From Cyanidioschyzon merolae (taxonomy: Eukaryota): a stretch of DNA of 64,000 bases. How positions within the stretch are numbered: position 1 is the stretch's first letter; the number at the start of each line of letters is the position of its first letter. This document shows positions 1 through 57,206 of this stretch, piece after piece. The stretch is taken from assembly GCA_000091205.1 (NCBI GenBank), contig AP006501.2. The stretch is one strand, 5' to 3'. Made by a program: the position numbers and the translations under genes. The notes under the pieces are model-generated. The model was given only the letters and a program-made list of their open reading frames with translations, had not been told where the DNA came from and made no database searches.

Positions 1-985
1 AATATCGTAACCATCGCTGTGCCCAAGCGTCCGGTAGATGGTACTGACGGCAACTTATGTCAGAAAGACATGCGGCTTTTAAAGCTCTCGAGAGCGAGAT
101 ACTATCGAGAATCCGGTATGATGAATGGAAGAAAGAAAACTGAGATATGGAATGCAGGATTGAAAGAGCACTTGGGAGCTTTGAGCGAGGTGACGAGCCG
201 CGGAACGGACTTTCAGGCTTTTCTGAAATTCATGGAAGTTCGCTTTGCTCATTGGGAGGCGCTGTGGGAGGAGTATGCAAAGCCCCGGTGGGCTCGTTTG
301 CGTATGAACTTGTATTGTGGTAAGCAGCGGGCGTTTGCCAACTTTTCAATCAGTTGAGTGCCTTGAAGGAGGATCAAAGTCAGAGGTTCGTTGTGGCATA
401 CGGAGCAGGGCGTTGGAAGACCCAAAAAGGTACTACGCCAGCTCCAACGACGAGAACGTACAAGGAGTGTGCACGGCGTTTCGTTACGATACCTGTATGT
501 GAGTTCCGAACGTCCTATACATACCATGAACTGGGCTGTACACTTCAGAGAGTGGAGATAGAAAAGTGCCAGAGGAGCCCCGAGGATATAGCAAAGTGCG
601 GACCGCTGACGGAAGAGCAAATGGAAAGGAGGGCGAAAGTTCGTGGCCTACTCGCATTAGTAAGTACAACTCCCAACGGCAAGAAACGGATGGAGTTTGT
701 TAACCGAGATTTTAACGCCGCTATCAATATACGGAGATGCGCGGTGATGGAGAAAAGACCTCCAGAGCTGACAAGTGAGAATTTTGTTGGACAATCTCTT
801 AAAGTGGAACTATATGAGAAAAAATTTGAACCAGCCGTGGGTGGCCGGTCGAGAAGAACGGGGAGACGACTGCACGTTAGACGGAGACGTCTTGTCTAGG
901 GCGGGTTTCTCGCCACTACTGTAAACCGCTTGCGGCAGCGTTTTTCTTTGAAAGGCGTGCGGTGGTATCACGTGCACAAAGCCAC
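1..985 (+). mobile_element. Decayed TnpB/Fanzor-like element, copy A (3' part; runs off the left window edge). Includes ~85 nt of conserved sequence after the stop codon
   Basis: Frames 19..357 and 354..899 together read as a frameshifted TnpB-type C-terminus: 'TYKECARRFVTIPVCEFRTSYTYHELGC' matches the L-YKA..G..V.V.P.YTSQ.C..CG block, followed by 'C..C...CG' and 'FVNRDFNAAINI' (the RuvC-III D-x-NAA-x-NI signature). It is about 75% aa and up to 90% nt identical to an inverted copy at 29290-30300. The frame breaks near 319-354. Confidence 0.5.
354..899 (+). pseudogene. TnpB/Fanzor-like RuvC-II / Zn-ribbon / RuvC-III region. It uses a TTG start, lacks an upstream RuvC-I in frame, and is probably inactive
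   Basis: C-terminal motif 'KKRMEFVNRDFNAAINIRRCAV' plus a basic tail. The expected RuvC-II Glu is not evident ('FVVAYGAG'). The upstream part sits in another frame. Confidence 0.5.
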
Positions 986-1085
986 ACGCTATTGCCTTCT
1001 CGTGCGTGCTGCGTTTCAATATTTATAGCCGAGTTGGCCCGCTTCGATTCCGTTGCTGAAGCCGCGGTCGATAAGCGCAGAGCTG

Positions 1086-3391
1086 ATGAGCGATGTTTCG
1101 CTCCAAGGTGCGGAAAACGTCTCTCCTGTGCGTGAGCAGTTTCAGCAGCCTACGTCTAGTGCAGCAGATCCGCGAGAGCCCGCGGTCGGCAGCCGAGACT
1201 CAGCCGGCTACCCCCGAGAGCACAACGTTACCCCAGGTGTTCGGTCTAGTTCGGGTACGCAGCATGAGCGTCAGCGGACTGCGGCTTTAGCGGCCTGTGT
1301 TCGAGCGCTCGGCTGTTTCGGTGGTGCGCGAAACTCTCAATGGACGCAGGCCCAGGCGAAGCGGGAAACGACGACAGGCGCTACGGACCAATCAGCGGAA
1401 CCGTCGGTCCCGTGCGAGTCGAAAGTCGGGTCAGCAGTTGCGACTGAAAATACTGAGGACGTGCTGGGTGCTGTTGACGGCGACCACGGCGCCCCGGCCG
1501 ACGTGGACGCGGAGCGTTCTTCAGAGGTTTCTTCGGCGAGCGAGGAGCTTCCATTTCGCTCCCTGTATCGGCGGGCGCAGGTGAAATGGGCCCGCCGGCG
1601 ACTCGAGAAGCAGGTTCAGAAGCTGCTTGCATTTACCTCCACACAGCTTAGTAACCTGCAGCATGTTCGTTCCGGACAAAAGTTGGATGCCGAGTTTGCG
1701 ATCCTCGCACGAATATATACCAATGCACATATCGACGAGGATTTCGCAAGGTTTAGTCGTCAGGAGTTTCGAACCTTCGCGGAGCACTTGCCGCTGTTTC
1801 TGAATTACTTGTTGCATTCGCGGCCGCTCGATGCGCCGGCGACGAGCGCAGCGCAACGCAACGCCTGGCGAGAAGTTGCCTCTTCGACGAGAGAGCGCAT
1901 CCGCCGCCATCAGAATACTCGCAAGCTAATCGAGACGCATTTGTTGCGGCGCTGTAGCGAGTCTGTGCGTTTCGCCCTATTTGTTTATTGGTATTTGGAT
2001 GGTTGTCTGCAGCTTGGACCTGAATCGGACCGGAAGGATACCCTCCGAATTATTATTGAGATTGAGAACATCATGTCGAGGAGCATCACATGCGCGACGC
2101 CCTCTTCACAGGTCGCTGGGGCACGCCCCCCGGTCAAGTCGTTCATGGCGTCGGATACGCCGGACGCGGCGACAGCGGACTCGGCCCCGGCGACATGGAG
2201 CCCCGGTGCTGCGCTTGCGGCTCCCGCCGGTGAAGTGCTCAGCCCAGCAGACGCTGCCGACGTTGGGTCTGTTGAGAGGATCGTGCACCAGCGCGCGATC
2301 GTCCATGAGATCGGTAACGAGTCTCGAGGCGAGGGCGTCTTCAGAGATCGCATGCTGCAGGATGAGACATGTTTGGCAGGCATCCTACCTGCAGAGCATA
2401 CGATCGCAGTGGATCTCGACGCGGATGCAGCTGACTGTGCAGTGCGCTCTGCGGACTGCAGTTTTCCAGAGGCGCCTGGCGTTCAGTCAACGACAGAACA
2501 AGAGCCGCGCATGCTCGCCCAGTCAAGCTTGATGTCGAATACGCGCGTTTTTCCACGAGAATCCATAGAAACTGGCCCTGAACGGGAGATAAGTTTCGCA
2601 TATGTTTCCCGTGGTAATCTTTTTCATGCACAGCTAGATTTTATGCGCGCGCTCATATCCATCTCCGAATTGGCGCTAGGCCTGAATCGATCGCAAAGAT
2701 CACGATTCGTCGTGAGGGAACTAGGCCGCCTGAACGCGCTTGTGGAAGCAGAGCGGCGATATGTTTTTCTGCCAACGGAGCGCATTCCACACCGGGTGCT
2801 TCGCATCCTCGCAGACGAGTCACATGTGTTCTCGACAAAGGAACATGCGCCGTACCTGGCCATTGTCGAAGTGCAGGATCTGGAGTCAACCAAGCTCGCA
2901 GAGCGCGAGCCCCGCAAGACATTGGCACGCACCATTGGCGATTGGCTGCATCGGGCAGGAGAGTATCGCCCGCGAGCGCCCCGCTCCGAACAACGACATA
3001 CAATGACCTGGTTCGCTTCACCACGCGGCACCGAAGCCGTCAAATCCCCTGAAAGCGGTCTCGCAGCAGCAACATCACCAGCGACGACTCCCGATCCACC
3101 GACAAGCCCAGCGTCGCGAAGCGCACCCGCTGTCGATACGCCTTCACCTGCAGGAGAGGAGCTTTCACAGAGCCGTGGCGGGAAAAACGCCTCCGTGTCC
3201 GAGAAACGCAGTGCACGCACGCGATTGCACGCACAGGAGCGTCACGCACGGAATCGCGCCCTGCATGGCGTCGCGAATGCGGCGGCGCATTCACTGACGT
3301 TTCCTGGCCCTAATCAGGCGGAGGCACCGTTCCCATTCTCAACGCGAACAGGCACGGATGCCGCTGAGCTACCACCGATGACCCATCGGTC

Positions 3392-3429
<38 letters not shown>

Positions 3430-4529
3430 GTCTACGAGCGGACGGCGTCGGTTCCAGTCATCCAAATCTTGAGACTGCAGCTGCTTCGGCGACGGGTGAC
3501 GGGATGACTGCATCGATGCCTGCATGTAGCGAAGCACAGGATGCGCGGGATCTTGGAGCGGAACTGGAATCTGGTGAAATCAAAAACGCTTTGGCGGAAT
3601 CGCGTGAAGCATGCTCGACACCGACCAGTGTTGGCAGCGATCGTTGGCGACGTCTCTTTGGGGAGCGCTGGGCTGAAAGGGTTCAGCGTTTGCAGCAGAC
3701 GTCACCATTTGGCCGCATGCCCGGTTGGCGACTGACCTCTGTAATCGTGAAAAGCAAGGACCAACTGCGACAGGAAATGTTTGCAACCATGTTGATTGCT
3801 GAGTTTGCGCGCATCTTTGAGTCAGCTCGTCTTGACGTTTGGCTATGTCCGTACCGCATTGTTGCAACTGGGGCCGATTGCGGATTCGTGCAAGTAATCC
3901 CCGATGCGCCCTCCATTGATCAGATCAAGAAAGCTTTCCACGGTAACATGACGCTTTCTGGCTATTTTGAGGAACGGTTCGGAGCGCGCGGCAGCGCTAC
4001 ACATCGCTTGGCGGTTCGCAACTTTGTGAAAAGCATGGCCGCATACTCCGTTATCACATATCTCCTGAACATCAAAGATCGACACAACGGAAACCTGCTC
4101 ATTGATGCTGAAGGCCATATCATCCACATTGACTTTGGATTCTTCTTCACCAATTCACCTGGTGGCAATATCGAGTTCGAGAAGGCTCCCTTCAAACTCA
4201 CCTGGGAACTTGCCGATGTGATGGGCGGCCCCGACTCGAACGCGTTCCGCCTATTCCGACGACTCTGCGGGCATGCTTACGCCGAGGCCTGTGCGCATCG
4301 AAACAAGATCATGCTCATGGTAGAGTTCATGATGATGGGAAATGAGTCGCTGCCGTGCTTCCGCGGCGGGGCCGACCTCACCCTCGAGCAACTGCGAGAG
4401 CGGTTCATGCCGCGCCAGACCCGTGTCAAACGCATTGCGCACATGAACGCGCTTATCGATCGAAGCAGTAACCATTGGACGACGAGATTTTACGATCGCT
4501 ATCAGCGGTGCTGTACTGGAATTTATTAG
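1086..4529 (+). CDS. Phosphatidylinositol 4-kinase, PI4KIII-beta/Pik1 type, with a long low-complexity N-terminal region including poly-Gln
   Basis: C-terminal PI3/4-kinase catalytic domain: '...NIKDRHNGNLLIDAEGHIIHIDFGFFF...'. The ORF opens at TTG 1053 and the first ATG is 1086. Q12 run at 3398-3433. Confidence 0.85.
3398..3433 (+). repeat. (CAACAG)n / CAG-type trinucleotide repeat encoding poly-Gln inside the PI4K gene
   Basis: 'caacagcaacagcaacagcaacagcaacag' is visible and translates to QQQQQQQQQQQQ. Confidence 0.9.
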
Positions 4530-5417
4530 CTCCACGGTAAATGAGAGATCTCAATGGCTGGTATACACACTGGACAACGAGAACGGTCACCGTTCGGGTC
4601 GGGTCCGACCCTATACCGAAGTCCTGTCGCACGATACGCTGGACAGGTGCACTGCTGATGCGGACGAAGGCACCCCAGTCGAGTGCTGCACGTCGCGACG
4701 GTATGGCAAGCATCACCAACTTGCCGTCCAGTGGGTGCTCGGATTTCCGCTAAGCGAATCATTTAGATTTGTCGAGCGGCTGCGTCGCAGCCAGCGAAGG
4801 CAGGTCGAGTAGCAAGCGAATATATCGCGTGGCTCGCTACCCGGATGCCCGGACCCCAGTGCAGGTATCCTGTACGAGCGCGATCTGCTGTCGCAGACGC
4901 TCGCTACGCATGGGCGTTAGGTTCAGGCAGAAAAGCGACAGGCCAGTTCTCGATACAGCGACACGGCACAAGCAACGGAACGGAACACAAGCGTACTTAC
5001 CGAATGACGAGGCCCGAAGCCATGAGTCGCCGCTCTTGGTTCGGAGCACGCACGCACGCACACCATCACCCGCAGCAGTCTGACAACGATGCGTACGGCG
5101 TTGCAGTGTCCTAGTCGGGGCTCAAGGACACCCGCGGATGACCACTGGGAAGTGCAGGCGTCGTTTACGCGGAGCTGCTCGCGGACTGGCGAGCGGTTTG
5201 CCGGGCTCGTCGCGACACTGCGCGTGCCAACATGGACTGGGCGCCCGTCCGACTTGCGCTGAGCCTCGAGCCTGGTACAGCGCCGATGCGAACACGTGGA
5301 ACACAGAGGCCCACTCCTCTGGCAATGCTCGTCAATAGCATCCGCATGTAGACGGGTCAGCTTTGATGACGTTTTCTGAAGGCTGCCTTCCACAGAAACA
5401 CTGCCCGCTTCGATGTA

Positions 5418-5603
5418 CTACCCTGAACCAGATCGCAGTTTCCCGTGCCAGTATCGAATGCAAGCACTGTACCAGACAGTGCACCGACTGCAATTGACTC
5501 CAGACTATCCTGAACCAGATCGCCGTTTCCCGTGCCAGTATCGGAGGCAATCACTGTACCAGAAAGTGCACCGACTGCAATTGGATGTGTCTGGGTGCCG
5601 AGC
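5418..5603. repeat. Tandem duplication, 2 x ~93 bp, about 88% identical
   Basis: Unit 'cctgaaccagatcgc(a/c)gtttcccgtgccagtatcg(a/g)a(t/g)gcaa(g/t)cactgtaccaga(c/a)agtgcaccgactgcaattg' occurs twice back-to-back. It lies intergenic, ~850 bp upstream of the ArsS-like gene. Confidence 0.8.
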
Positions 5604-6447
5604 AACCACTGCAGCATATAATGAACTCGGAGACGAGCTCATCGCCGCACCTCCCTGGTAAGAACGCCCCAAGCAACAATCAAGCACTCTGATGGGCAAA
5701 GCGATATGAAAACAAGCGGGCTCCTCTTTGAAGCTTCAGTACGAGCATCTGTATCCAAGCGTGTGTACATCGACGCCCGCTCGTGATGCGGCGACTCCGC
5801 ATGAAAAATTCCAACTGCATTACAGAGACACCGAGGCGCTGTGGGTGCCCATTGTCAGCAGGGGTATCTCAATGGACGCTCAGAACATCGAGCATCGGGC
5901 GACATCGTCATGCATCCGGGCAAGTGCCGTTTCCGAAGCACAGAAGCGCTCGCATGCCGCTGTCCAGCGGATAGACGACGACAGGTGCAACTGCGGATGC
6001 CGCGCGCAAAAGATACAAACAAGACATATATGCTCCAAATTAGATATAAAGGACCAAGCTGTTGACGGGCGCATCTGGCGCGCCACCACGCCGCCTTCAC
6101 GACCGCGCTGGGTGCTACCCGACACCCCCGAACGTCTACCTCAGCGGCTGGGATTCCCTGCCGGAATCCTTCGCAGGTTCCGGACCAGAACAGAACGATT
6201 CACCCTATCTTTGCTGTCTTCGTTCGCTTACTTCTTCCATTCAACGCCACAAAGAGGTGACATGTACAGAAACTGTTTTGTAAGTCAAGGTTTCGCGGGG
6301 AAGTGCAGCGCCCCCGCAAAGCACCGCACGGCGAGCGCGTGGTGCAGGTGCCGTGGTGCACGTGGCGCCAGCTGGGCACCCTGCTTCAGAAACCGGTGCG
6401 CACCGCGGCGAACTGCGCGTGAAACTCGGCTCGGCCGTCTCGCAGCG

Positions 6448-22053: not shown

Positions 22054-25000
22054 GTCCGTTGGCCGCACGACAATCAACGACGGGATGTACGATCAGTGGC
22101 TAAAGTTCGCCAAACTGCAGCCAAACTGCCCGTTCAGAGTTTCCACCAACGCGAGGCGCTCCCGTCGCACGTACCGGCCTTGTGCAGTCCAGTGGATGTG
22201 CCAAGGCAATCAACTCCCCGAAGCTTGACAGGTCGACACTCGAACAAGACCCGCCCCAGAGAAGCATAAACCGACACGTGGACAAACCTTCGCGCTCACT
22301 AGCCTCCTCAAACCAGCCTCAAACACTTGAGCCTCACAAGAAAGGCTCCCGCGTTTACGACTTTAAGCCTCAGCAGCGAGAGAGGCACCGTGGCGTGTCA
22401 AAAGCGTCTTGTGTAGCGTTTTGTTCGAACACGCACGCACGCAGCCGAAGATCGAGCACGCACACATCTGAACCGCGATGCGTGCGGACGTAACGTGACG
22501 CATGCTTGCGTGACGACACGAAAAGCGACGCGCCGGCCGCCGCGCCTGTTGCGCGCTTGGCGCGCTCAAGAGCGCTGTCCCAATCTAGGACATAGAGGAC
22601 GCCTTTCCAGGCGGCTTCTCTGCGCCATTCAGTTGGCGGCTGCGCGGTTGCGGGTGATGTTTTTCGCGATTCCATTGGCCAGGGATCTCTGATTCCGCGC
22701 TTCGCATCAGCGCGCAGTGAAACAGGTATCGTACCATGGCCTGCTTCTAAGTTGCACGATCCGTACTTTTTTTGTCGGAGATCGTGGTTGTTGTCCGCGT
22801 TCTGTCGTACGCTGCGTGCATGCCGTGAGCGTTCGCAGTGAGCCCTATTGTGCCGCCACGGTCGCAGCACGGAGACAAAGCGGCTTTGCTACAGTCCTGA
22901 GGGCCTCGGCTCGAGGCGTGCTGCCTGCGCGAATGCTCCAAAAACGGGTGTCAGGCGCGTCAGGTATCGGGGGCGTCTCGAACAACTGCGGCTGTGCGAA
23001 GCAAGTTTCCCTTTGGACACCTTTTCATATTAATGCGAAGAAAACTCTGGGCGCTGCCCTCGTTCAGTGTGGCTTTGGCAGTAAAGTATCTTGCGTTCAT
23101 GGTTCTTTCACGCTAATTATTACTTTGCTGTATATACCTGGATTCATTGAGGAAATAGTACTTTCTATTTAGCAGTTATTCTTTGACCTAGGCTATTTTT
23201 AGGGCTAAACAGCTGCAGCAGTCTCGTTTGCATCTATTGAATCGAAAGCTCCATGTCCGAAACTTCAAAAGCAGACTTGGTTGACGTTTCTGCAGCGTCG
23301 TACCTCTCCAGACGCGGCACAGATGAAACGTACAGTTCTGCAGTTGGCATTGTGGTTGCTGCGCGCTTGTGGAGCATGTTTCCGGGACAGGTGCGCATGG
23401 TTCTCATGCGTGACGTCCGATCGAAGGGAACGCGCTCGAAGGAGACGGAAGCGCGTTTGACGGAGGAATATGCGGATGTTGTTGCACCACGTTATGGGAC
23501 GGAAGAAAAGTTCATGGCAAACCTGTGGCTCTTGCGATGACCCGAACTAGGTGTAGAATGGTCTCGGTATGCTGGTCTGCAGTGGACAACCGGCGGGCTC
23601 GCTTCCTTACTAAATGTAGTATGGAATATATCCTGAGAGAAACGAGTAGGGTCCGATACCAGATCTGCTTAAAGTGTTATGGTGGTTACTTCTGCTGCGA
23701 AGCGCTCGCTGGCAAGTCGTTTTCAAGTATGCTGCAGAGCGCGAACTCTATTCTGGACTCGGTGCTGCTTCTGTGTGCTACAAAACGGATCTAGAAGCTC
23801 TCCGCATTCCACTGACTTCGACATGGCGTGCTGTACCCCAACTGCAACCAAGCGTTTGCGAAAGGTTTCGCGTGCTGCAGCATGGGAAACCCAAGTGAAC
23901 AAAGCTGAGTCGATCGCAGAATCCGTACATGATTTGGATCCATCGGCGATAATATCTCGCCACGTGAAATCAGAAGATACTTTATGGGAAGCGCTGTGAA
24001 GTCGAACGGCCAGTTCTAGCGTCCCGGAGCATGAAGAGACACACATACGGGATGAAAGCACCTTCCTTGCAGGTCGTAGACTGCCGCAAGTACATGGCAT
24101 CGGCGTAAGGTACGAATACCTCCCGTTTTTTATGATGCTGGATCCATACGTCAAAGCAGAATCCCCCGTACTGGGAACGGTGCCGATAACCAGGGCCGGG
24201 ACCCCCGCTCGCCTCAGCCGATCCACCGCACCACAGGGTCACCTCGTGTATACCCTCAGAGCCACACATTGGACCGATCTGGTGAGTTCATCCGCACCGG
24301 GCCTCCAGAGTACGCTCGCCAGGACACACGATACACCTTTGAAGTCGTTCACACAGGTGGACAGGACGGCTTCGCGCTGCCTTTGCTGAAATTCGTCCAA
24401 GGGCATATCGCCTGACCCTCTCCAGGCACCCAAATCGCGTTGGAGCACGTATTGCAACTCGCTTAATCTCGCAGAATCTCACCGAGCGCATCCCGCGAAA
24501 AACACACTTTGCATCTTCAGATCAGCGCTACCTAGCAGAGCTGAGGTTCATTCTAGCACATTCTAGAATGTCATTTGGCGAGAGGACGCTTTGTCGGAGC
24601 TCTTGTAGAAAGCGCCCCGAATTCAGAATGCTCAACTTTGCAGCGCAAACACTCGGGAGAGCGCCGAGCCCGTCGCTTGTCCGTGCAGATACAGGTCTCG
24701 GTGTTCATGCTCGCAGCGGCTCCTGCAGCTTGACTTTCCGCAAACTCGCACCGAACCAACGGTGTAAACTCGGTCTCGACAACGGATTCGGCCACTGTAC
24801 TTTTGTACGCGTTTTTCCTTGCATCCGAGTTCGAAATGGGTGTAACACTCAGCGGCACGGTCGGTGAACGGTACCTGCTGTTGGAAAAGCCAACGCACGC
24901 TGCATCTGGTTTCGAATATGCTCGACTGCACCACTCTCGCCGCAGTCTGAATTCATAAACAGCTACGCTACACGATTGAATCTGAACGGAAGCCCGACCG

Positions 25001-29079: not shown

Positions 29080-29289
29080 GTATCTTCCTCGTCCGAAAAT
29101 CGCAAGCGCAATTCGAATCAAACGGAAACGCGAGCAGCAGAAACCCAGGAAACGATGTTGTTGCTGGTGATGAACGCGAGACGCAGTGCGGACCCTGCAC
29201 CAGCACGCCCTCGACATCTCGTATGCCGCCGTCCATCAAAGCGTTTCCTGCTCTCCGGGCAATGGCAGTGCAAAGCTACGAAATCCGGA

Positions 29290-30300
29290 TTCGCTGACGA
29301 CAGCGAACGCCTTTCTAAAGTCGAAAGCAGTCGTCAGCGATACAGTGGTGGCGGCGAACGCCCGCCCTAGACAAGACGTCGCCCACTGATGTGCAGAGGC
29401 CTCCCAGTCTTTCTCGACCGGCCACCTACTACTGCTTCCAACTTTTTCTCATGTAATTCCACCATGAGAGGTTGTCCATGAAAATTCTCTCTCGTCATTT
29501 CTGGGGGTCTTTTCTCCATCACCGCACATTTCCTTATATTGATAGCAGCGTTAAAGTCTCGGTTCACGAATTCCATACGTTTCTTGCCATCTCTGGTTGT
29601 ACGTACTAATGCAAGTAGTCCTCGAACTTTCGCTCGCCTATCCATTTGCTGCTCCGTCAGCGCTCCGTATTTTTTACAATCCTCAGTACCCCGCTGGCAC
29701 TTTTCCACAGAGACCCTCTGAAGTGTACACCCCAGCTCATGGCGTATGTATGACGTTCGGAACTCATCTACAGGTATCGTAACGAAACATCGTTCGCACT
29801 CCCTGGACGCTCATTCCGAGTCGCTGTAAACCGGAAACGAAACTCTCCTCGACAAGCCATGAAAGTGGTGTTGTGGCTTTCCGCCAGACACGGTGGCTGT
29901 ATTTGCCGTGCCCGTGGCCCTGCAGGCGTGTTTCGGGGTGCGCTGACTGCACAAAAGCGGCGAGTTCGCGCTGCTGCCCTAGTATCTGGATGCTGGCGAC
30001 TCCCCGGCACAGATACCTTACGATGTGCGGACGGAGCATGCTGCTTCAGCACCGTAAGAACGACGCGCTCTCATGCGCGTTCCCTTGTGATCCAAGATAT
30101 GATCCACAGAGTGATAGTGGCGGCTAGCACGGAGCGTCTTCCGCATCGACTGCCGATCTGGGAACTGCGGCCCAGGGTTCGGAGTTTCACGTCACGAATG
30201 GTCCATACGCTCACGAGCGGTACTCGAAGCGGGCGCGCTGGACATTACACACTGCTTTGCTGCACGAGAACAGTGCTATGCTCGGGGCCGGCTAGAGTAC
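29290..30300 (-). mobile_element. Decayed TnpB/Fanzor-like element, copy B, inverted relative to copy A. Includes the conserved flank after the stop codon
   Basis: ORF 29367..29708(-) reads '...KKRMEFVNRDFNAAINIRKCAVMEKRPPE...GRRLV*', ~75% identical to copy A. Upstream frames 29764..30039 and 29768..30052 align to copy A (nt core 'gtttcgttacgatacctgta(t/g)(g/a)tgagttccgaacgtc' ~90% identical). An in-frame TAG and a 1-nt deletion disrupt the frame. Confidence 0.5.
29367..30052 (-). pseudogene. TnpB/Fanzor-like nuclease pseudogene (frameshifted, with an internal stop)
   Basis: Same motif set as copy A (YTSQ-like block, Zn-ribbon Cys pairs, NRDFNAAINI) split across two frames. Confidence 0.5.
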
Positions 30301-31078
30301 CTAAAGAAAAGTCAGCGTGAACGTCGCTTGCAGGTACGGTGCATGCCACGGGCTAGGCGAGCGTGATCCGATTGCCCCTCATTTCGTAATGCGAATTCGC
30401 TGTGCATGAGTGTCTTCCCGTACTAACGCCTCTTTACTTCAGGTCAGAGGCGCGCCTGTTCGAGCTGGGTTAGCGCTTGCGTTCTAGCGCGAGCGCGCCA
30501 CCCAATTTGTCGATTATATGCAGTAAGAGGGAATATACAGATTTGCGTTGGCCCTACACACATCGCAAATCTACTCCACAAACGAGGCAAGGATATGAGG
30601 ATCGCCTCATCGATCGCTGGACACAGCTTGTGTCTACATCACCTAGAGATACGCAGCACAAGCGGCAGCCCAAGCGGCAGCCCAAGCGGCAGCACAAGCA
30701 GCAGCAATCTGCGTCTGTGGACCGAAATGTATAGACTTGGATTCGCCCAACGGATTGGCCAACAAAGTGGCCTTCGGTGGCGTTTTGCGCGCGTATTCGC
30801 TCAGCATACTGTGCGTTCAGGTCTGTTTCAATCCCTGCGTACGCTTTGGGAGCTGGTGGAGCATCGCTTTCTTGTGCATGGTTTCGCTTTGTTATCTGAC
30901 AGGTGTATGGACAAGTGATTCAGACTCGAAAAAACGATGCTGGCGCTGTGTACAGAGAAATGAAACCGTGTTGCCGTTTGTAACGAGACTCCAGCGCAAC
31001 AGCCCAGGGGCGTGCCTCGTGCCGCGCAGGCGCGCTGGCTTGCCCCAAGCTGGTGTTGCGGGAGCGACCTTTTGGACG

Positions 31079-36414: not shown

Positions 36415-38102
36415 GGGCGAGCGCAGGTCACCACAACCGTAACTGCAGACGACAGCGCCTCAACCTTTGCCTCAACTCGGCAGACCGGACGTCGGATCCC
36501 TGTCGTTCTGCTGTGCACGGGCGATACGCTGCAACGGACTTGCGGATGCGCTGACGGACGAATCGGACACCCAGATCAGGTCGATACAGCGTCATTCTGT
36601 GTCACATTGTGTCACTATATATCAGTGCGTAAGGCTACATGGCGCGATGTTTCTATGTAGTTCGCTTGATCATGTTATGTACTAATAAATACCATTTTGT
36701 TCCTGGTGGGATGCGCGGCTGGCGCTCTGTTCACTGCGCGCCACGTCTTCACGAAGCAGATACTACGCATGCCGTCTTCGACTAGACAGTACTGGATACT
36801 GTGAAAGCGTACGGATCCGATTTATTTTGTTTGACAAAACGCTGCCGTATATAATGGATCCCAGATAGCGGGATCGATATTGGTAATCGAGAAAGCGTTC
36901 ATCATGATGCACTCTACTTCCAAGTTACATTTCCAATGCTTCCTTCCAGGTACACGAGTCGTTTTGTACGTTCTGTCGTGCACCTAACCTGCCTTACTGC
37001 GTTCGCAATAGCTGCTAGACCGCTGGTGCGGATGCAGCACGGAGACGGAACGGCTATGCCATAGCAATGAGGGTGTCGGCTCGAAGCCTGGTTCACCTGA
37101 TACGGGGTTGGGGTTCATGATCATTCTGGGAGCTTGGAAACTGTGCGGACAGACCTAATGCCCGCATCAGCGCGAAGCGATATACCATCAGGCCACTGCA
37201 GTCGGGGCGACAACCGGATGCATTCTTCCCGCTCCTAATCCCAGAATAATCTGCGTCTCAAACGAGTTGTCCATGGATGGTCACAGCACCCGTCATAGGG
37301 TGGAGCGTACAGCACGAGCCGCACAGACCCGTCCAGCTCACGCGACCTTCCGCGTAGAAGGTGGGCTTTGGGAAACACGGAACAGTGTTCCCACTCCCAA
37401 CGCTCACCGTAGACGAGGAACGATGTTGCTATTTCGTTGCTACCCAGTGATTAGTTTCTGTTCTTTCGACACAGTTACAGCTAGTAAGTCGTTCGTTTCT
37501 GTAGTTTTATGCGCTCGCCCATAGAAAAGAGCAACCGCACTGATCCGATGCTTGGGGTAGCCACGTGCCTGCTGCATGGGTCAACCTTTTCCGTGCAGCG
37601 GATCCATACCGGGCATACAAAAGTCCTGGCGTGACTGAATCGAGACCAAGTCTCGTTTTTTTACATACTGGTATGGAAGATATTGTTGGCTGCGTTCGGA
37701 TGTGTCAATGCTGCGAGTAACTGGGCTAGGAACTCGCCATCAGCTGATCATCCCATAGATCCCAAACTGAAATCCATTGGTATGCGGCGAATCTGCCTGC
37801 ATGACCGGTGACGGAGAACGTAGTCGCCGACCTCGATGCCCGCCAAGACGCTCACGCTGGAACGAGCGTGGTATCCTCTAAAGCTGGCGGCAAGCGGTTC
37901 TTTCGGGCAAGCCCCGCCACAAGTTGCGATCAGCCTCAGCGCAGTGCCTGTATCCAGTCGTGAGAGTCGGTTCCGAAGTACCACTCGCTCGCAGTAACCC
38001 GAAACTGAGTGCACCTTCACCAGAACAGGAAACTTGTAAAAGTTGCTGAGTTTCGAACAGCGAGCAACGTGAAACGCAGCGCAGCCGAATAGGTGCATGT
38101 GC

Positions 38103-45767: not shown

Positions 45768-46604
45768 ACGATCTTCGACGTGCTCTGTGAACGATGATTC
45801 GCTTCAGGCGACGTTGCGTTCGATGCGGGCTACTCAGACGCATAGACCACCAAGGGAGCTACGAGCTTGCATTGAGGAGCGTCATCCAGGAAAACGTCTT
45901 CCGATCACGCGAGCAGGTAGTCTTCGGGAACAGGTCGCTTGTGCAGTTGTCACGCTCGAACAAATCACCACTTTCTGGTCACTCTGAGCCGTTGATGGAA
46001 TCTGCAATCAAAGCATAGGACGAGCTGGTAGAAAATGAAAGGAAAACAGCGCGAAGAGCGCCTGGGTATACCTCTATCGGACGGTTTTGTGTTCTCTACC
46101 AAACGACATACGTTGTTGTTGACGAAACCGAGTTTCCGCGTTCGCACCGCGCTCGCCGTTTGCTAGACTCATTTCCGTGTTAAATAGGGCAGAGCCAATG
46201 ATGCGGGCGTACACTCGAAAGTTTGCGTCTCATGTGACTTTCATCAATACCAGCCTTTGCGGGCTATTTCTCCTACTGCGTCCTTTTCCTCTTTCTCATC
46301 ACTGTCATGAAGGATGCCGGTCTACACGGTTTCCCTACCTCCATTGCTAGCTTTCGAGGGATGCTGATGTCAGCGCTGCAATTCTGATTTCACCGCATCC
46401 GCCAAGTGTCGATCCATGTCATGCACAGACCATCGTTGTGAACTACGCGTTGATTTCCATTTTCTTCTTCTTGGTAAACTACCTCGCTGCGTCCTTCTCG
46501 CCTGGGTCACTTGACTGTGGTCAGGTATTCTTATGTACGTCCGTCCTGGAGCGGACACCCTCTGGGGTACGCGAAAGCCGTTCTGTCTCCGTGTCGCATC
46601 CGCA

Positions 46605-46730
46605 CCGGCGCTAGAGGCGCTATCGCAGACGACCGGGGCAGGTACTCGGCGCGCGATAGAACGTATGAAACAACCAGCATATCCGAGAAGAGGTATGGGA
46701 CATGGAACTCGGAAGTATGGTGCATCATGA
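46605..46730 (+). other. Conserved non-coding element, copy 1 (~115 nt), ~430 bp upstream of the RPL12 gene
   Basis: About 80% identical to 55228-55340 in the same orientation. Shared core: 'gatagRacgtatgaaacRaccagMatatccgagaRgaRKtatggg'. The element spans ORF-track entries 46533..46730 and 55146..55340, which share a 'RMK.P.YPR' translation; their encoded proteins are judged spurious. Confidence 0.6.
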
Positions 46731-47156
46731 TGGGCACTTTCCAGAATGCCAACATCCATTGCGCAATCAGGCAACGCGAGTCTGTGTCAACGTTTCGTCT
46801 GATGCAACGAAAAACCATCGTTTGGATTGCGCTGCAGGCGTCACGACACGAGCTGTGACACATGATGCCGCCATCGCCGCTGCCGCCTAGCGCAGCACGC
46901 GCATGGCGCAGAAATGACCCGAAAATATACAAATCTCCCTGAGCCTCCGGCGTGCACCGCGCACTGCACTGCAAGCGAGCGCTCTCTACGCTGTCTTCCG
47001 TATGGACAACTGTTGCGATCCATAGAACAACGCGCGTTGAGCCGCTGTTCTTAGAGAAACGGACCCGGGCGTGTGAATCTTGTTTCTTTTATAGCCCTAA
47101 ACACCGGGTTTTCTTGGTTGCTATAGAGAAGCCGTCAGACAAGACCAGCACACAAA

Positions 47157-55227: not shown

Positions 55228-55340
55228 CGGCGCTATCGACGCTATTGCGGCCGCTTTCGGCAGGCACTAGCACCACGATAGGACGTATGAAACGACCAGA
55301 ATATCCGAGAGGAATTATGGGTAATGCAACTTGGAGGTAG
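55228..55340 (+). other. Conserved non-coding element, copy 2 (~115 nt), immediately upstream of and divergent from the GLTP gene
   Basis: Aligns end-to-end with 46605-46730 (see copy 1). It is followed by an unusual A-rich tract at 55368-55450. Confidence 0.6.
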
Positions 55341-57206
55341 GGGGTTGATGGATACCTCACCGCGCACTGAAAAAAACACACAAAAAAGTAAGAAAAGAAA
55401 AATGCACCAAATCGGAGAACGTTGGCCCAAGTAAAAGTTTTGACAATGAAAAAAATCCGTCTGCCTCACTGGACGTCGTCGAGCGATGGAGAGCGCGGGT
55501 GTACAGCGACAGACGCAAGCACTGGCTCTTCCATTCGATTGCGAATGTCTGGATGGCGATACGGTCCGTGAGGAAACAGGTACCCGAGACAAAGTCCATA
55601 CTGGAGGAAAAGTTCCGCAATTTCGACTCAACTACGCTCCCTTCGCACCCACACGTGACCTATTGACCACCGGAGGCGATCGCTACGATGACTGCAATCC
55701 GGGTCCTTGGCCGTTTTCCATGCAAGCTGAGGAGCGCGGAGCCGCTGGGAGCGTGCTCCCCTGTGAGCGAGGTATCATGCTGCAGTCGACTTTGGTATCG
55801 TGGATGGCTACGACGAGATGCGGATTCGTGTTTCGGAAGACATCGATGATCGGACGCGAGCGGTTCCGTGAGCTGCCGCCTCTGACAGCCTGTGGTCGAC
55901 TTGTCACTGCGCGACGTCGCGATGCGCTCGATGTGCACCCAGCGGCGCGAGTCGCTGCGTCCACGCGGTGCCTTGGCGGGGAACCATCGAACACGTGAAG
56001 CGGGCGTGATTGGAACATGCTCCGCATTCGCACAAGAGCGTCACGGAGGCTTGGACGTATGCACGGGATACGGATATCGGTTGCTTTATGAACCGTACGC
56101 GGGAGGCGTCACGAGTCGCGTTGATTACGGTGACGTGCCGATGCCAGCGGGAGAACGTCGAACACGTCACTCTGGACACTCGATCGAGATTCCCTGAACC
56201 TCGTATGAAACCGTTGGCTCTGACAACTGCCATCGGCATGTCGAGGCTATGTGTTTCTGAAAACCCAAGTCCGGAACAACATCCGAATACGTGAACCGTA
56301 CGATCATCAGTATAGTGTTTGAGTCTGAACGCACACAAGTGTGGATCCTCTGCGTACCGACTCGTGTTCATAGACGCACAGACAATCCGCTGAATTCATG
56401 GGTGTTGCTCCGTAACCAAAGGCCGCAATCTCTGCGTTTGGTATCTACCTGCCAGGAAGACTCTTTTACTCTTTAGATGCTTCTTGTGATCGTGGATGCA
56501 TTTCGAATAGGTTCGGTGCCGCGCCACTGCCGCATCCCAAGGTCACCCGGCATCGTGGTGCTCTCAGCGCTTCAGTTCGAAGGTATCTCGGGTGCGCTGA
56601 GGCGCGTCCAATAACCACATGTCGACTGTGGACGCTGCATATCAGTTCAGCTCGTCTGTTGTGTGTTCCTGTCGCGAGAAAACCGAACGTTGACGCAGCG
56701 TTGTCGCTTGCTCACCATTCACGGAAGCACGCTGTGCAAAGTTTCCAGTCAGTCGGCCGGCTTCACGCACCAGACATAAACACGGGCGAACCGAGTTCGA
56801 GTTCCGCGACGACCGCAACACAGCACCTGTCGCTGCAGAGACACCAGGCGGACTGAGTCGTGACCCGCTCGCCCGCCGGAGGCACGCGTGCTGCTCTCGA
56901 GGCCGGTACAGCGTTGTTCGTTAACGCTCGGGTGCTCGTTGAGTGGGTTACGGGGATCGGGCACGAGAACAGAGCTTCCTCGTCTGCACAAGCTTTGAAG
57001 CTCGTAGCGTCAACAACCGTACAGCGGGCTTTGCAGCCCCGGGAGTTGTCTACAGTTGCGTCTGGATGACGTTCGCGTTAACCTGGCACCGGTTATCGTT
57101 CAGTGCACGAGCGAGGCAGGTTCTCGCCGAACGTCGCATAGCGAAGCGGTGGCACCTGCCTCGCGATATGCACCAACGCTGCCAGCTTCGTCAAGCACCG
57201 TAAACT

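Follow-up and report, generated by a model that had tools for sequence, protein, structure and literature searches.

The window analysed here is a 64,000-nt stretch of the genome of Cyanidioschyzon merolae 10D (contig AP006501.2 of assembly GCA_000091205.1). Its housekeeping genes are eukaryotic and intron-free, and include those for exportin-1, a TCP-1 chaperonin subunit, Gln-tRNA ligase and a PPR protein. Three proteins encoded in the window are identical to C. merolae 10D entries. Between genes of this kind lie two relics of a single transposon family, CMe-1A, each carrying the 3' part of a gene for a TnpB-like nuclease: copy A opens the window on the plus strand, upstream of the PI4K gene, and copy B lies on the minus strand, near the exportin-1 gene. 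A preliminary description of the window had noticed that the homology between the two relics does not stop at their stop codons, and proposed that the shared flank is what is left of an omega-RNA (guide RNA) or right-end scaffold. Below we show that this flank is almost certainly the right end of the transposon, that it folds into two stem-loops, and that it may well have served as a guide-RNA scaffold in active ancestors.

The window begins inside copy A, whose open reading frame (ORF) has a frame shift near position 350 and a TAG stop codon at 897-899. The best homologue of its protein (P0001, 97% identical) is the orthologous metagenome copy; the orthologous insertion beside the PI4K gene (L001) has 99% DNA identity to the window. 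This ortholog reads GAHPGNT instead of the family's GADPGNT, that is, it has His for the first catalytic Asp, and it carries additional frame breaks upstream. At ~345-357 copy A of strain 10D reads FANFSIS-stop where P0001 reads FANFFNQLSAL, which fits the loss of one base from a run of T. Of copy B, 526 nt of the 3' part are left, with the last 147 Fanzor1 codons and the stop codon (29369-29367, minus strand); everything upstream of these is lost. The Glu (CEFRT in copy A, DEFRT in copy B) and the last Asp (NRDFNAAINI) are retained in both copies; the position of the first RuvC Asp falls beyond the edge of the window in copy A and is deleted in copy B. An intact ORF was found at none of the 46 insertion sites that we sampled (see below). 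Both window copies are pseudogene relics, decayed fossils between housekeeping genes, and the module described here is in this window a molecular fossil and not a working RNA gene. Because both copies are such relics, we do not suggest that either of them produces a working RNA.

The insertion of copy A is common to related strains across several metagenomes at ~99% identity, and therefore it is old. Many insertion sites, including that of copy A at PI4K (L001-L004 against window 1-5900), are shared at 97-99% identity between several Joint Genome Institute (JGI) metagenomes, so that these insertions took place before the sampled C. merolae-like populations diverged. Copy B points its tail towards exportin-1; from the stop codon of that gene (29079) it is 212 nt downstream to the right end of the copy (29291), which lies in the spacer ahead of the PPR gene at 30737.

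CMe-1A was described in C. merolae by Bao and Jurka (2013, Mob DNA 4:12; PMC3627910). According to that article, the family has ~150 copies with ~80% identity to a ~3-kb consensus, no terminal inverted repeats (TIRs) and undetermined target-site duplications (TSDs), is unclassified, and shares its 5' 635 bp with a separate short repeat, TE-N2_CMe. The repeat in the window is CMe-1A, and both relics are copies of this family. The repeated unit as we measured it is 2.7-3.3 kb long with a single ORF, in agreement with the published element; copy number, identity, the lack of TIRs and the TE-N2_CMe 5' module likewise agree with the published description. A search for TIRs, matching the right end against the 3 kb upstream at 18 loci, gave only chance matches of 8-11 nt, and no second ORF and no HUH or other transposase gene was found within the element. 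Ahead of its first RuvC motif the ORF has tandem repeats of 75 nt, in frame and differing in number between copies, which encode acidic units of 25 residues, for instance VTKDEDEKEADPATQEVEDNDLVVD (L010:2328-2632, L017:2253-2632, L024:2183-2632 and others); much of the variation in copy length lies in these.

The TnpB-like protein of the window has 231 close homologues, every one of them metagenomic. Pfam searches with the window proteins and these close homologues found PF07282 only below threshold, and a narrow family profile (A2) matched nothing relevant among PDB sequences; a broader alignment was needed. A full-library profile search gave 1405 relatives at E <= 0.001, many of them 600-700 amino acids long, and alignment A5 comprises 82 sequences, namely 79 relatives and three family members (P0005, P0009, P0033). 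The A5 profile matches the solved Fanzor1 chains of Parasitella (PpFz1, 9cf0, E = 5.8e-22), Spizellomyces (SpuFz1, 8gkh, 5e-15) and Guillardia (GtFz1, 9cer, E = 3.5e-7), with the DPG, DEFRT and NRD-NAA motifs aligned between profile and chains. The RuvC residues D421, E592 and D658 (A5 numbering) are invariant or near-invariant in the wider family. Because the A5 profile matches solved Fanzor1 chains with these motifs aligned, we assign the CMe-1A protein, by sequence profile, to Fanzor1; 'TnpB-like', as the relics were first called, was right, and this profile match makes it more precise. The host is a eukaryote and the context a multi-copy transposon, both in keeping with membership of Fanzor1. 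An AlphaFold2 model built from the shallow family alignment was discarded (mean predicted local distance difference test score, pLDDT, 44; predicted template modelling score, pTM, 0.25).

Copies A and B align by blastn over 454-964 (plus strand) and 29812-29301 (minus strand), with 79% identity over 516 nt (E = 8e-121). The continuation of homology past the stop codon, as first noticed, holds for the post-stop part taken alone: 900-964 and 29366-29301 (minus strand) are identical in 49 of 63 ungapped columns, with three small indels, and their local score of 34 was reached by none of 1000 shuffles (14.2 +/- 2.2). The fading of homology further out was also correctly described; in copy A it ends beyond ~964. 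For a wider comparison we used 80 loci, out of 475 related stretches in contigs from related hot-spring metagenomes, which clustering by 3' flank reduces to 46 distinct insertion sites. Conservation 3' of the stop codon, which the preliminary description had asked to be looked for in other genomic copies, recurs in these 80 further copies. The same post-stop block is present at nearly all of the 46 sites, the sequences beyond it are unrelated, and it has an abrupt common edge 65-85 nt after the stop codon. Because the block stops abruptly at a common edge with unrelated flanks beyond, it is close to certain that it is the right end of CMe-1A.

The block consensus is UAG GGCGCGGUUGCCGCC ACUACUGUACAC CGUUGGCGUCGUUCGA CUU UCGAACGGCGUUGAUGGUG. 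In the coordinates of copy A, column entropy is 0.65 bits at 897-932 and 1.15 bits at 933-965, rising to ~1.7-1.9 bits past the edge. Conservation of at least 90% is found in a 13-nt island, CGCCACUACUGUA, which forms part of the 3' side of stem-loop 1 and part of the linker, and in the stem cores (Table 1). A hidden Markov model (HMM) and a covariance model of the block gave hits confined to such ends; in the window these are 895-970 (plus strand) and 29295-29371 (minus strand) only. The same models found no solo or 'ghost' right ends in the window, and two extra fragments without an ORF among the loci, L075:1520-1568 (minus) and L023:2-51 (plus); the former is inverted and stands head to head with a 5'-truncated copy. 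A search for empty sites, comparing locus flanks with the window across the insertion, found no match. On inspecting the end sequences by eye we rejected an end of Helitron type, which would have CTRR ~10 nt past the hairpin. The module of copy A ends at ~964-966, so that its right end (~966) sits ~121 nt upstream of the PI4K start codon (ATG at 1087) and not 70-100 bp before it, as had been thought, and the module of copy B runs to ~29291, past the end first given for it (29296).

Well-preserved copies fold into two stem-loops. The module opens with a short, G+C-rich stem-loop (stem-loop 1), which includes the stop codon itself; a highly conserved stretch (CCACUACUGUACAC) follows, and then a long terminal hairpin (stem-loop 2) of up to 19 bp with ~five G-U pairs, the foot of which is the element edge. 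The GGCG/CGCC core of stem-loop 1 is near-invariant in 62 copies. In copy A, stem-loop 2 has an outer stem ACCGC/GCGGU and an inner stem GCGUUUUUC/GAAAGGCGU, and its 3' foot is the right end; the fold of 895-966 has -26.3 kcal/mol (z = -1.7), against -14.8 for the antisense strand. Copy B had appeared degraded when cut at the coordinates first given, and both stem-loops become visible once it is extended to 29283. Its stem-loop 2 has a perfect outer stem of 11 bp, UCGCUGACGAC/GUCGUCAGCGA; the fold of 29283-29370 has -36.6 kcal/mol (z = -2.7), and the hairpin region 29283-29345 alone has z = -3.9. The short palindromic stems that had been noted outside the alignable part do exist, but in copy B they belong to the terminal hairpin, as its 3' arm, and do not stand apart from it. 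The outer stems of copy A, of copy B and of the consensus (CACCGUUGG/UUGAUGGUG) differ from one another, yet each is complementary within itself. There are also two hairpin subtypes that keep the stem in different registers, UCGUUCGA-CUU-UCGAACGG and AACGUUUUUC-UUUU-GAAAGGCGUU. One locus, L076:2369-2442, lacks this terminal hairpin; where it would follow the conserved ACUGU motif there is instead a perfect palindrome of 15 bp that is unrelated to it, CCGGCGAGCACGCGC ... GCGCGUGCUCGCCGG, with ~-35 kcal/mol.

Table 1. The two CMe-1A relics of the window and the parts of their right ends (window coordinates)
Feature	Position	Strand	Basis
Copy A, 3' part of CMe-1A Fanzor1 pseudogene	1..899	+	Translations; 231 homologues
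Copy A stem-loop 1, UAGGGCGGG UUU CUCGCC-CUA, stop codon included	897..918	+	Fold
Copy A sequence core, CGCCACUACUGUA	911..923	+	Most conserved of the post-stop block; most columns at least 90% in alignment A3
Copy A stem-loop 2 (terminal hairpin)	925..966	+	Fold; homology to other copies ends 958-964
Host flank 3' of copy A right end	967..985	+	Flanks diverge at all 46 sites
Copy B, 5'-truncated CMe-1A fragment	29367..29812	-	Blastn, translation, stop position
Copy B stem-loop 1 (GGCGG ... CCGCC)	29350..29366	-	Fold
Copy B stem-loop 2 (terminal hairpin)	29291..29340	-	Fold; 3' foot is the right end

Several tests bear on whether these structures are real. Well-preserved copies fold with -27.6 to -40.5 kcal/mol (z = -3.5 to -4.9), and in the two of them that were folded both ways the antisense strand is weaker by 8-10 kcal/mol; over the 46 sites the mean energy is -11.9 for the sense and -7.6 for the antisense strand. 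When the partners are slid along a structure-blind MAFFT alignment, the share of paired cells drops from 71% to 34-58%. In an alignment fitted to the model 86.9% pair, against 82.0% when shuffled, with none of 500 shuffles reaching any of five measures. The preliminary description had suggested looking for covariation in a fold-based alignment, and the model-fitted alignment does contain double changes in 22 of the 27 pairs (8.8 expected), whereas RNAalifold recovers an invariant stem only (see below). The apical pair of stem-loop 1 swaps between G-C and C-G among subfamilies (11 vs 9 sequences), and stem-loop 2 has 126 G-U cells vs 26 A-C cells. Joined to its own 3' tail, the hairpin of copy B has -23.0 kcal/mol, against -13.1 with foreign tails (rank 1 of 34). 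Together these tests support a structure on the sense strand, which RNA and top-strand DNA fit alike.

The part common to all copies starts with GCGCTCGGTGAGCGCACC, a small hairpin on the same strand; this left end lies outside the window for copies A and B alike. The bases preceding GCGCTCGGTGAGCGCACC are CATC, AATC, CATA/AATA, TAGA or CAGC, in ~six independent contexts. Tentatively, a fixed left-flank motif is hinted at, which without empty sites is not separable from the element end.

In IS200/IS605 elements such as ISDra2, the scaffold of the TnpB guide RNA comes from the 3' end of the nuclease gene together with the right end, and the adjoining flank is the guide. These elements have hairpins at their ends, no inverted repeats and no target-site duplication. 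CMe-1A is like them in having hairpins at its ends and no inverted repeats. It differs in that no TnpA-like Y1 transposase is associated with it within the element, in that its hairpins stand at the very ends whereas those of IS200/IS605 lie 10-19 nt inside, and in that the TnpB scaffold overlaps the ORF extensively whereas CMe-1A involves the stop codon only. The preliminary description names such an overlap as a trait of TnpB/Fanzor systems; in CMe-1A, apart from the pairing of the stop codon within stem-loop 1, we saw no clear sign of it: a search of the last ~150 nt of the ORF for extra nucleotide constraint found weaker codon periodicity and no clear excess.

Among Fanzors, the nearest comparison is SpuFz1, the Fanzor1 of Spizellomyces punctatus, whose guide-RNA scaffold is 75 nt long (Saito et al. 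2023, PMC10432273; PDB 8gkh). Its RNA takes 14-15 nt of variable flank as the guide, is bound by the protein and has a predicted stem-loop structure (PMC10432273). The RNAs that co-purify with other Fanzors come from non-coding sequence 3' of the gene, next to the right end, and were predicted by the same drop in conservation that we used here (PMC10530073). CMe-1A resembles SpuFz1 in having a Fanzor1 protein and a single-ORF element, and its putative scaffold is like that of SpuFz1 by position, size and edge. The comparison with a known Fanzor omega-RNA that had been proposed thus bears out in position, size (75 nt for the SpuFz1 scaffold) and sharpness of the edge. There are also differences: SpuFz1 elements have 30-nt terminal inverted repeats, the 3' one of which the RNA spans, whereas CMe-1A has a long end hairpin and no inverted repeats; and for SpuFz1 the RNA, the target-adjacent motif (TAM; CATA) and cleavage have been shown experimentally, whereas the CMe-1A module is known here from sequence alone.

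The CMe-1A block runs from the stop codon to the right end, directly 3' of the nuclease ORF, which is the position of an omega-RNA. It is conserved and is followed by a locus-specific segment, which is the layout of a guide RNA, with the jump in entropy at the edge seen over the 46 sites. Because CMe-1A has the same layout and size as known Fanzor guide RNAs, we regard this reading as the best supported: by analogy, and with reasonable though far from full confidence, we propose that the right-end module of CMe-1A was the guide-RNA (omega-RNA) scaffold of its Fanzor1 in active ancestors. In these, the ~70-nt module would have been transcribed on the sense strand as the scaffold, and transcription would have continued through the next 15-20 nt of host DNA to supply the guide. 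By analogy with SpuFz1, the guide would start at ~967 in copy A and at ~29290 (minus strand) in copy B. The Fanzor1 protein would bind this RNA and cut DNA matching the flank beside a short motif at the element's other end. The hairpins probably were also a DNA signal, marking the right end for a mobilising enzyme. The proposal first made for this flank is supported in part, by the right end, the position, the two stem-loops and the sense bias; what does not stand is conservation after the stop codon as evidence by itself.

This last point is the first of several that weigh against a guide RNA. On average the post-stop block is conserved no better than third codon positions are (0.65 bits for the latter; p = 0.37 for 897-932 and ~1 for 933-965 in Mann-Whitney tests), and therefore homology past the stop codon needs no selection; conservation there, taken alone, says just that the transposon extends 65-85 nt past its ORF. 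The strongest covariation figures come from an alignment that was fitted to the structure and so leans towards it, and most of the G-U pairs are inherited from the consensus and are not independent events. On structure-blind MAFFT alignments RNAalifold yields only the short invariant GGCG/CGCC stem, because the register of the long hairpin changes between subtypes. The swap of own for foreign 3' tails is marginal (-19.0 vs -17.5 kcal/mol, p = 0.04), and hairpin stability does not correlate with intactness of the ORF among the 46 sampled copies (rho = -0.13, p = 0.45). A TAM adjacent to the left end is not definable from ~six contexts without empty sites. Rfam found nothing at gathering thresholds in the whole window, and at permissive E-values only chance-level matches in 700-1020 and in one well-preserved copy; a tRNA search of the window was likewise negative.

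The same evidence has to be read against three other explanations, of which the serious one is that the hairpins are an end signal at the level of DNA only, acting on single-stranded DNA or bound as DNA to mark the right end for the mobilising enzyme, with no guide RNA. Such a signal would be akin to the hairpins found subterminally in IS200/IS605, IS91 and Helitron-type elements, and transposons that HUH endonucleases mobilise generally carry a hairpin at one end or at both (bioRxiv 10.1101/2022.12.15.520654). CMe-1A has no terminal inverted repeats (18 loci here; also PMC3627910), its boundary is the foot of a hairpin, and at the start of its core left end the same strand has a further hairpin, small and G+C-rich (GCGCUC-GGU-GAGCGC). 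All the structural signals fit top-strand DNA equally well, which is a further point against the guide RNA, in that a single-stranded DNA hairpin would produce the same ones. However, RNA tolerates five G-U positions in a stem of 19 bp better than DNA does, the element contains no HUH or other transposase gene, and every Fanzor or TnpB with sequenced RNA in PMC10432273 and PMC10530073 draws its RNA from this very region, the protein here being a Fanzor1. The two roles are moreover compatible, the right-end hairpin of IS200/IS605 being part of both. We therefore take an end signal in DNA to be a plausible companion of the guide-RNA scaffold, and find it unlikely as the whole explanation.

Very unlikely, in our view, is that the block is an ordinary 3' untranslated region (UTR) of the Fanzor1 mRNA, with hairpins that serve 3'-end formation or stability of the transcript and without guide function. 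It does follow the stop codon directly, on the sense strand and with greater stability there, and the stop codon is paired within stem-loop 1. Yet at every site conservation of the block stops exactly where the transposon does, and therefore the mRNA end would lie in host DNA anyway; no polyadenylation-type motif turned up, although no search was aimed at one; and it is from the 3' UTR region that guide RNAs come at other Fanzor loci (PMC10530073). We give still less credence to the block having no function at all, kept only as part of the repeat, with hairpins that are leftovers or chance palindromes. The per-site conservation, whose mean equals that of third codon positions, would fit this, as would the pseudogene state of all sampled copies, a hairpin energy unrelated to the state of the ORF, and a copy A fold that is only marginally above shuffles (z = -1.7). 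It is hard to reconcile with the 13-nt island and stem cores conserved at 90% or more, with subtypes that keep the hairpin despite different sequences and registers, with a structure that beats all slid and shuffled controls, or with the G-U vs A-C asymmetry of 126 to 26; and transposon ends are, as a rule, cis-acting parts.

CMe-1A has been catalogued since 2013, and its two-hairpin right end, the exact edge and the hairpin of the core left end are worked out here. The 2013 description is older than the discovery of Fanzor guide RNAs, and its accessible text contains nothing on 3' end structure (PMC3627910); in the literature that we searched we found no description of the CMe-1A 3' module and no report of a C. 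merolae Fanzor RNA. If the guide-RNA scaffold is as we propose, this would be the first anatomy of a guide-RNA module for the sole Fanzor1 family catalogued in C. merolae, supplying the exact right end, two stem-loops and a start site for the guide in a model extremophile alga with good genetics. As a Fanzor1 element that ends in hairpins, not in inverted repeats, CMe-1A also bears on the question of what mobilises 'Fanzor-only' elements. For the window itself the consequences are small, both copies being decayed.

A bolder idea, to which we attach a small probability, is that CMe-1A is a eukaryotic counterpart of the hairpin-ended 'peel-and-paste' elements of IS200/IS605 type, with the right hairpin acting both as the DNA signal and as the last stem of the guide RNA. 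The features that point towards it are the same-strand hairpins at both very ends, the absence of inverted repeats and the putative short, fixed ATC/ATA motif in the left flank; a lack of target duplication, which PMC3627910 leaves undetermined, would point the same way. If true, a Fanzor1 would be linked to the ancestral way of life of TnpB and not to the usual cut-and-paste transposons of eukaryotes, and an alga open to genetic work would offer a Fanzor1 system adapted to heat and acid.

The region 5' of the core is more variable than the right end. A TE-N2-like module stands directly 5' of GCGCTCGGTGAGCGCACC in either orientation (minus at L001:2988-3596, plus at L066:448-1050) in different CMe-1A subfamilies; in others the 5' module is an unrelated one or is missing. 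It seems that one junction received insertions repeatedly, rather than that there is a single composite element. The ~600-nt 5' module of many CMe-1A copies also stands alone in the window, with copies or fragments at 36832-37440 (plus), 46545-46799 (minus), 55258-55457 and, weakly, 22667-22924. This repeat matches the published TE-N2_CMe (~70 copies). It starts with a T-rich stretch and ATGACAAAACG, which can form a small CGUUUU/AAAACG hairpin.

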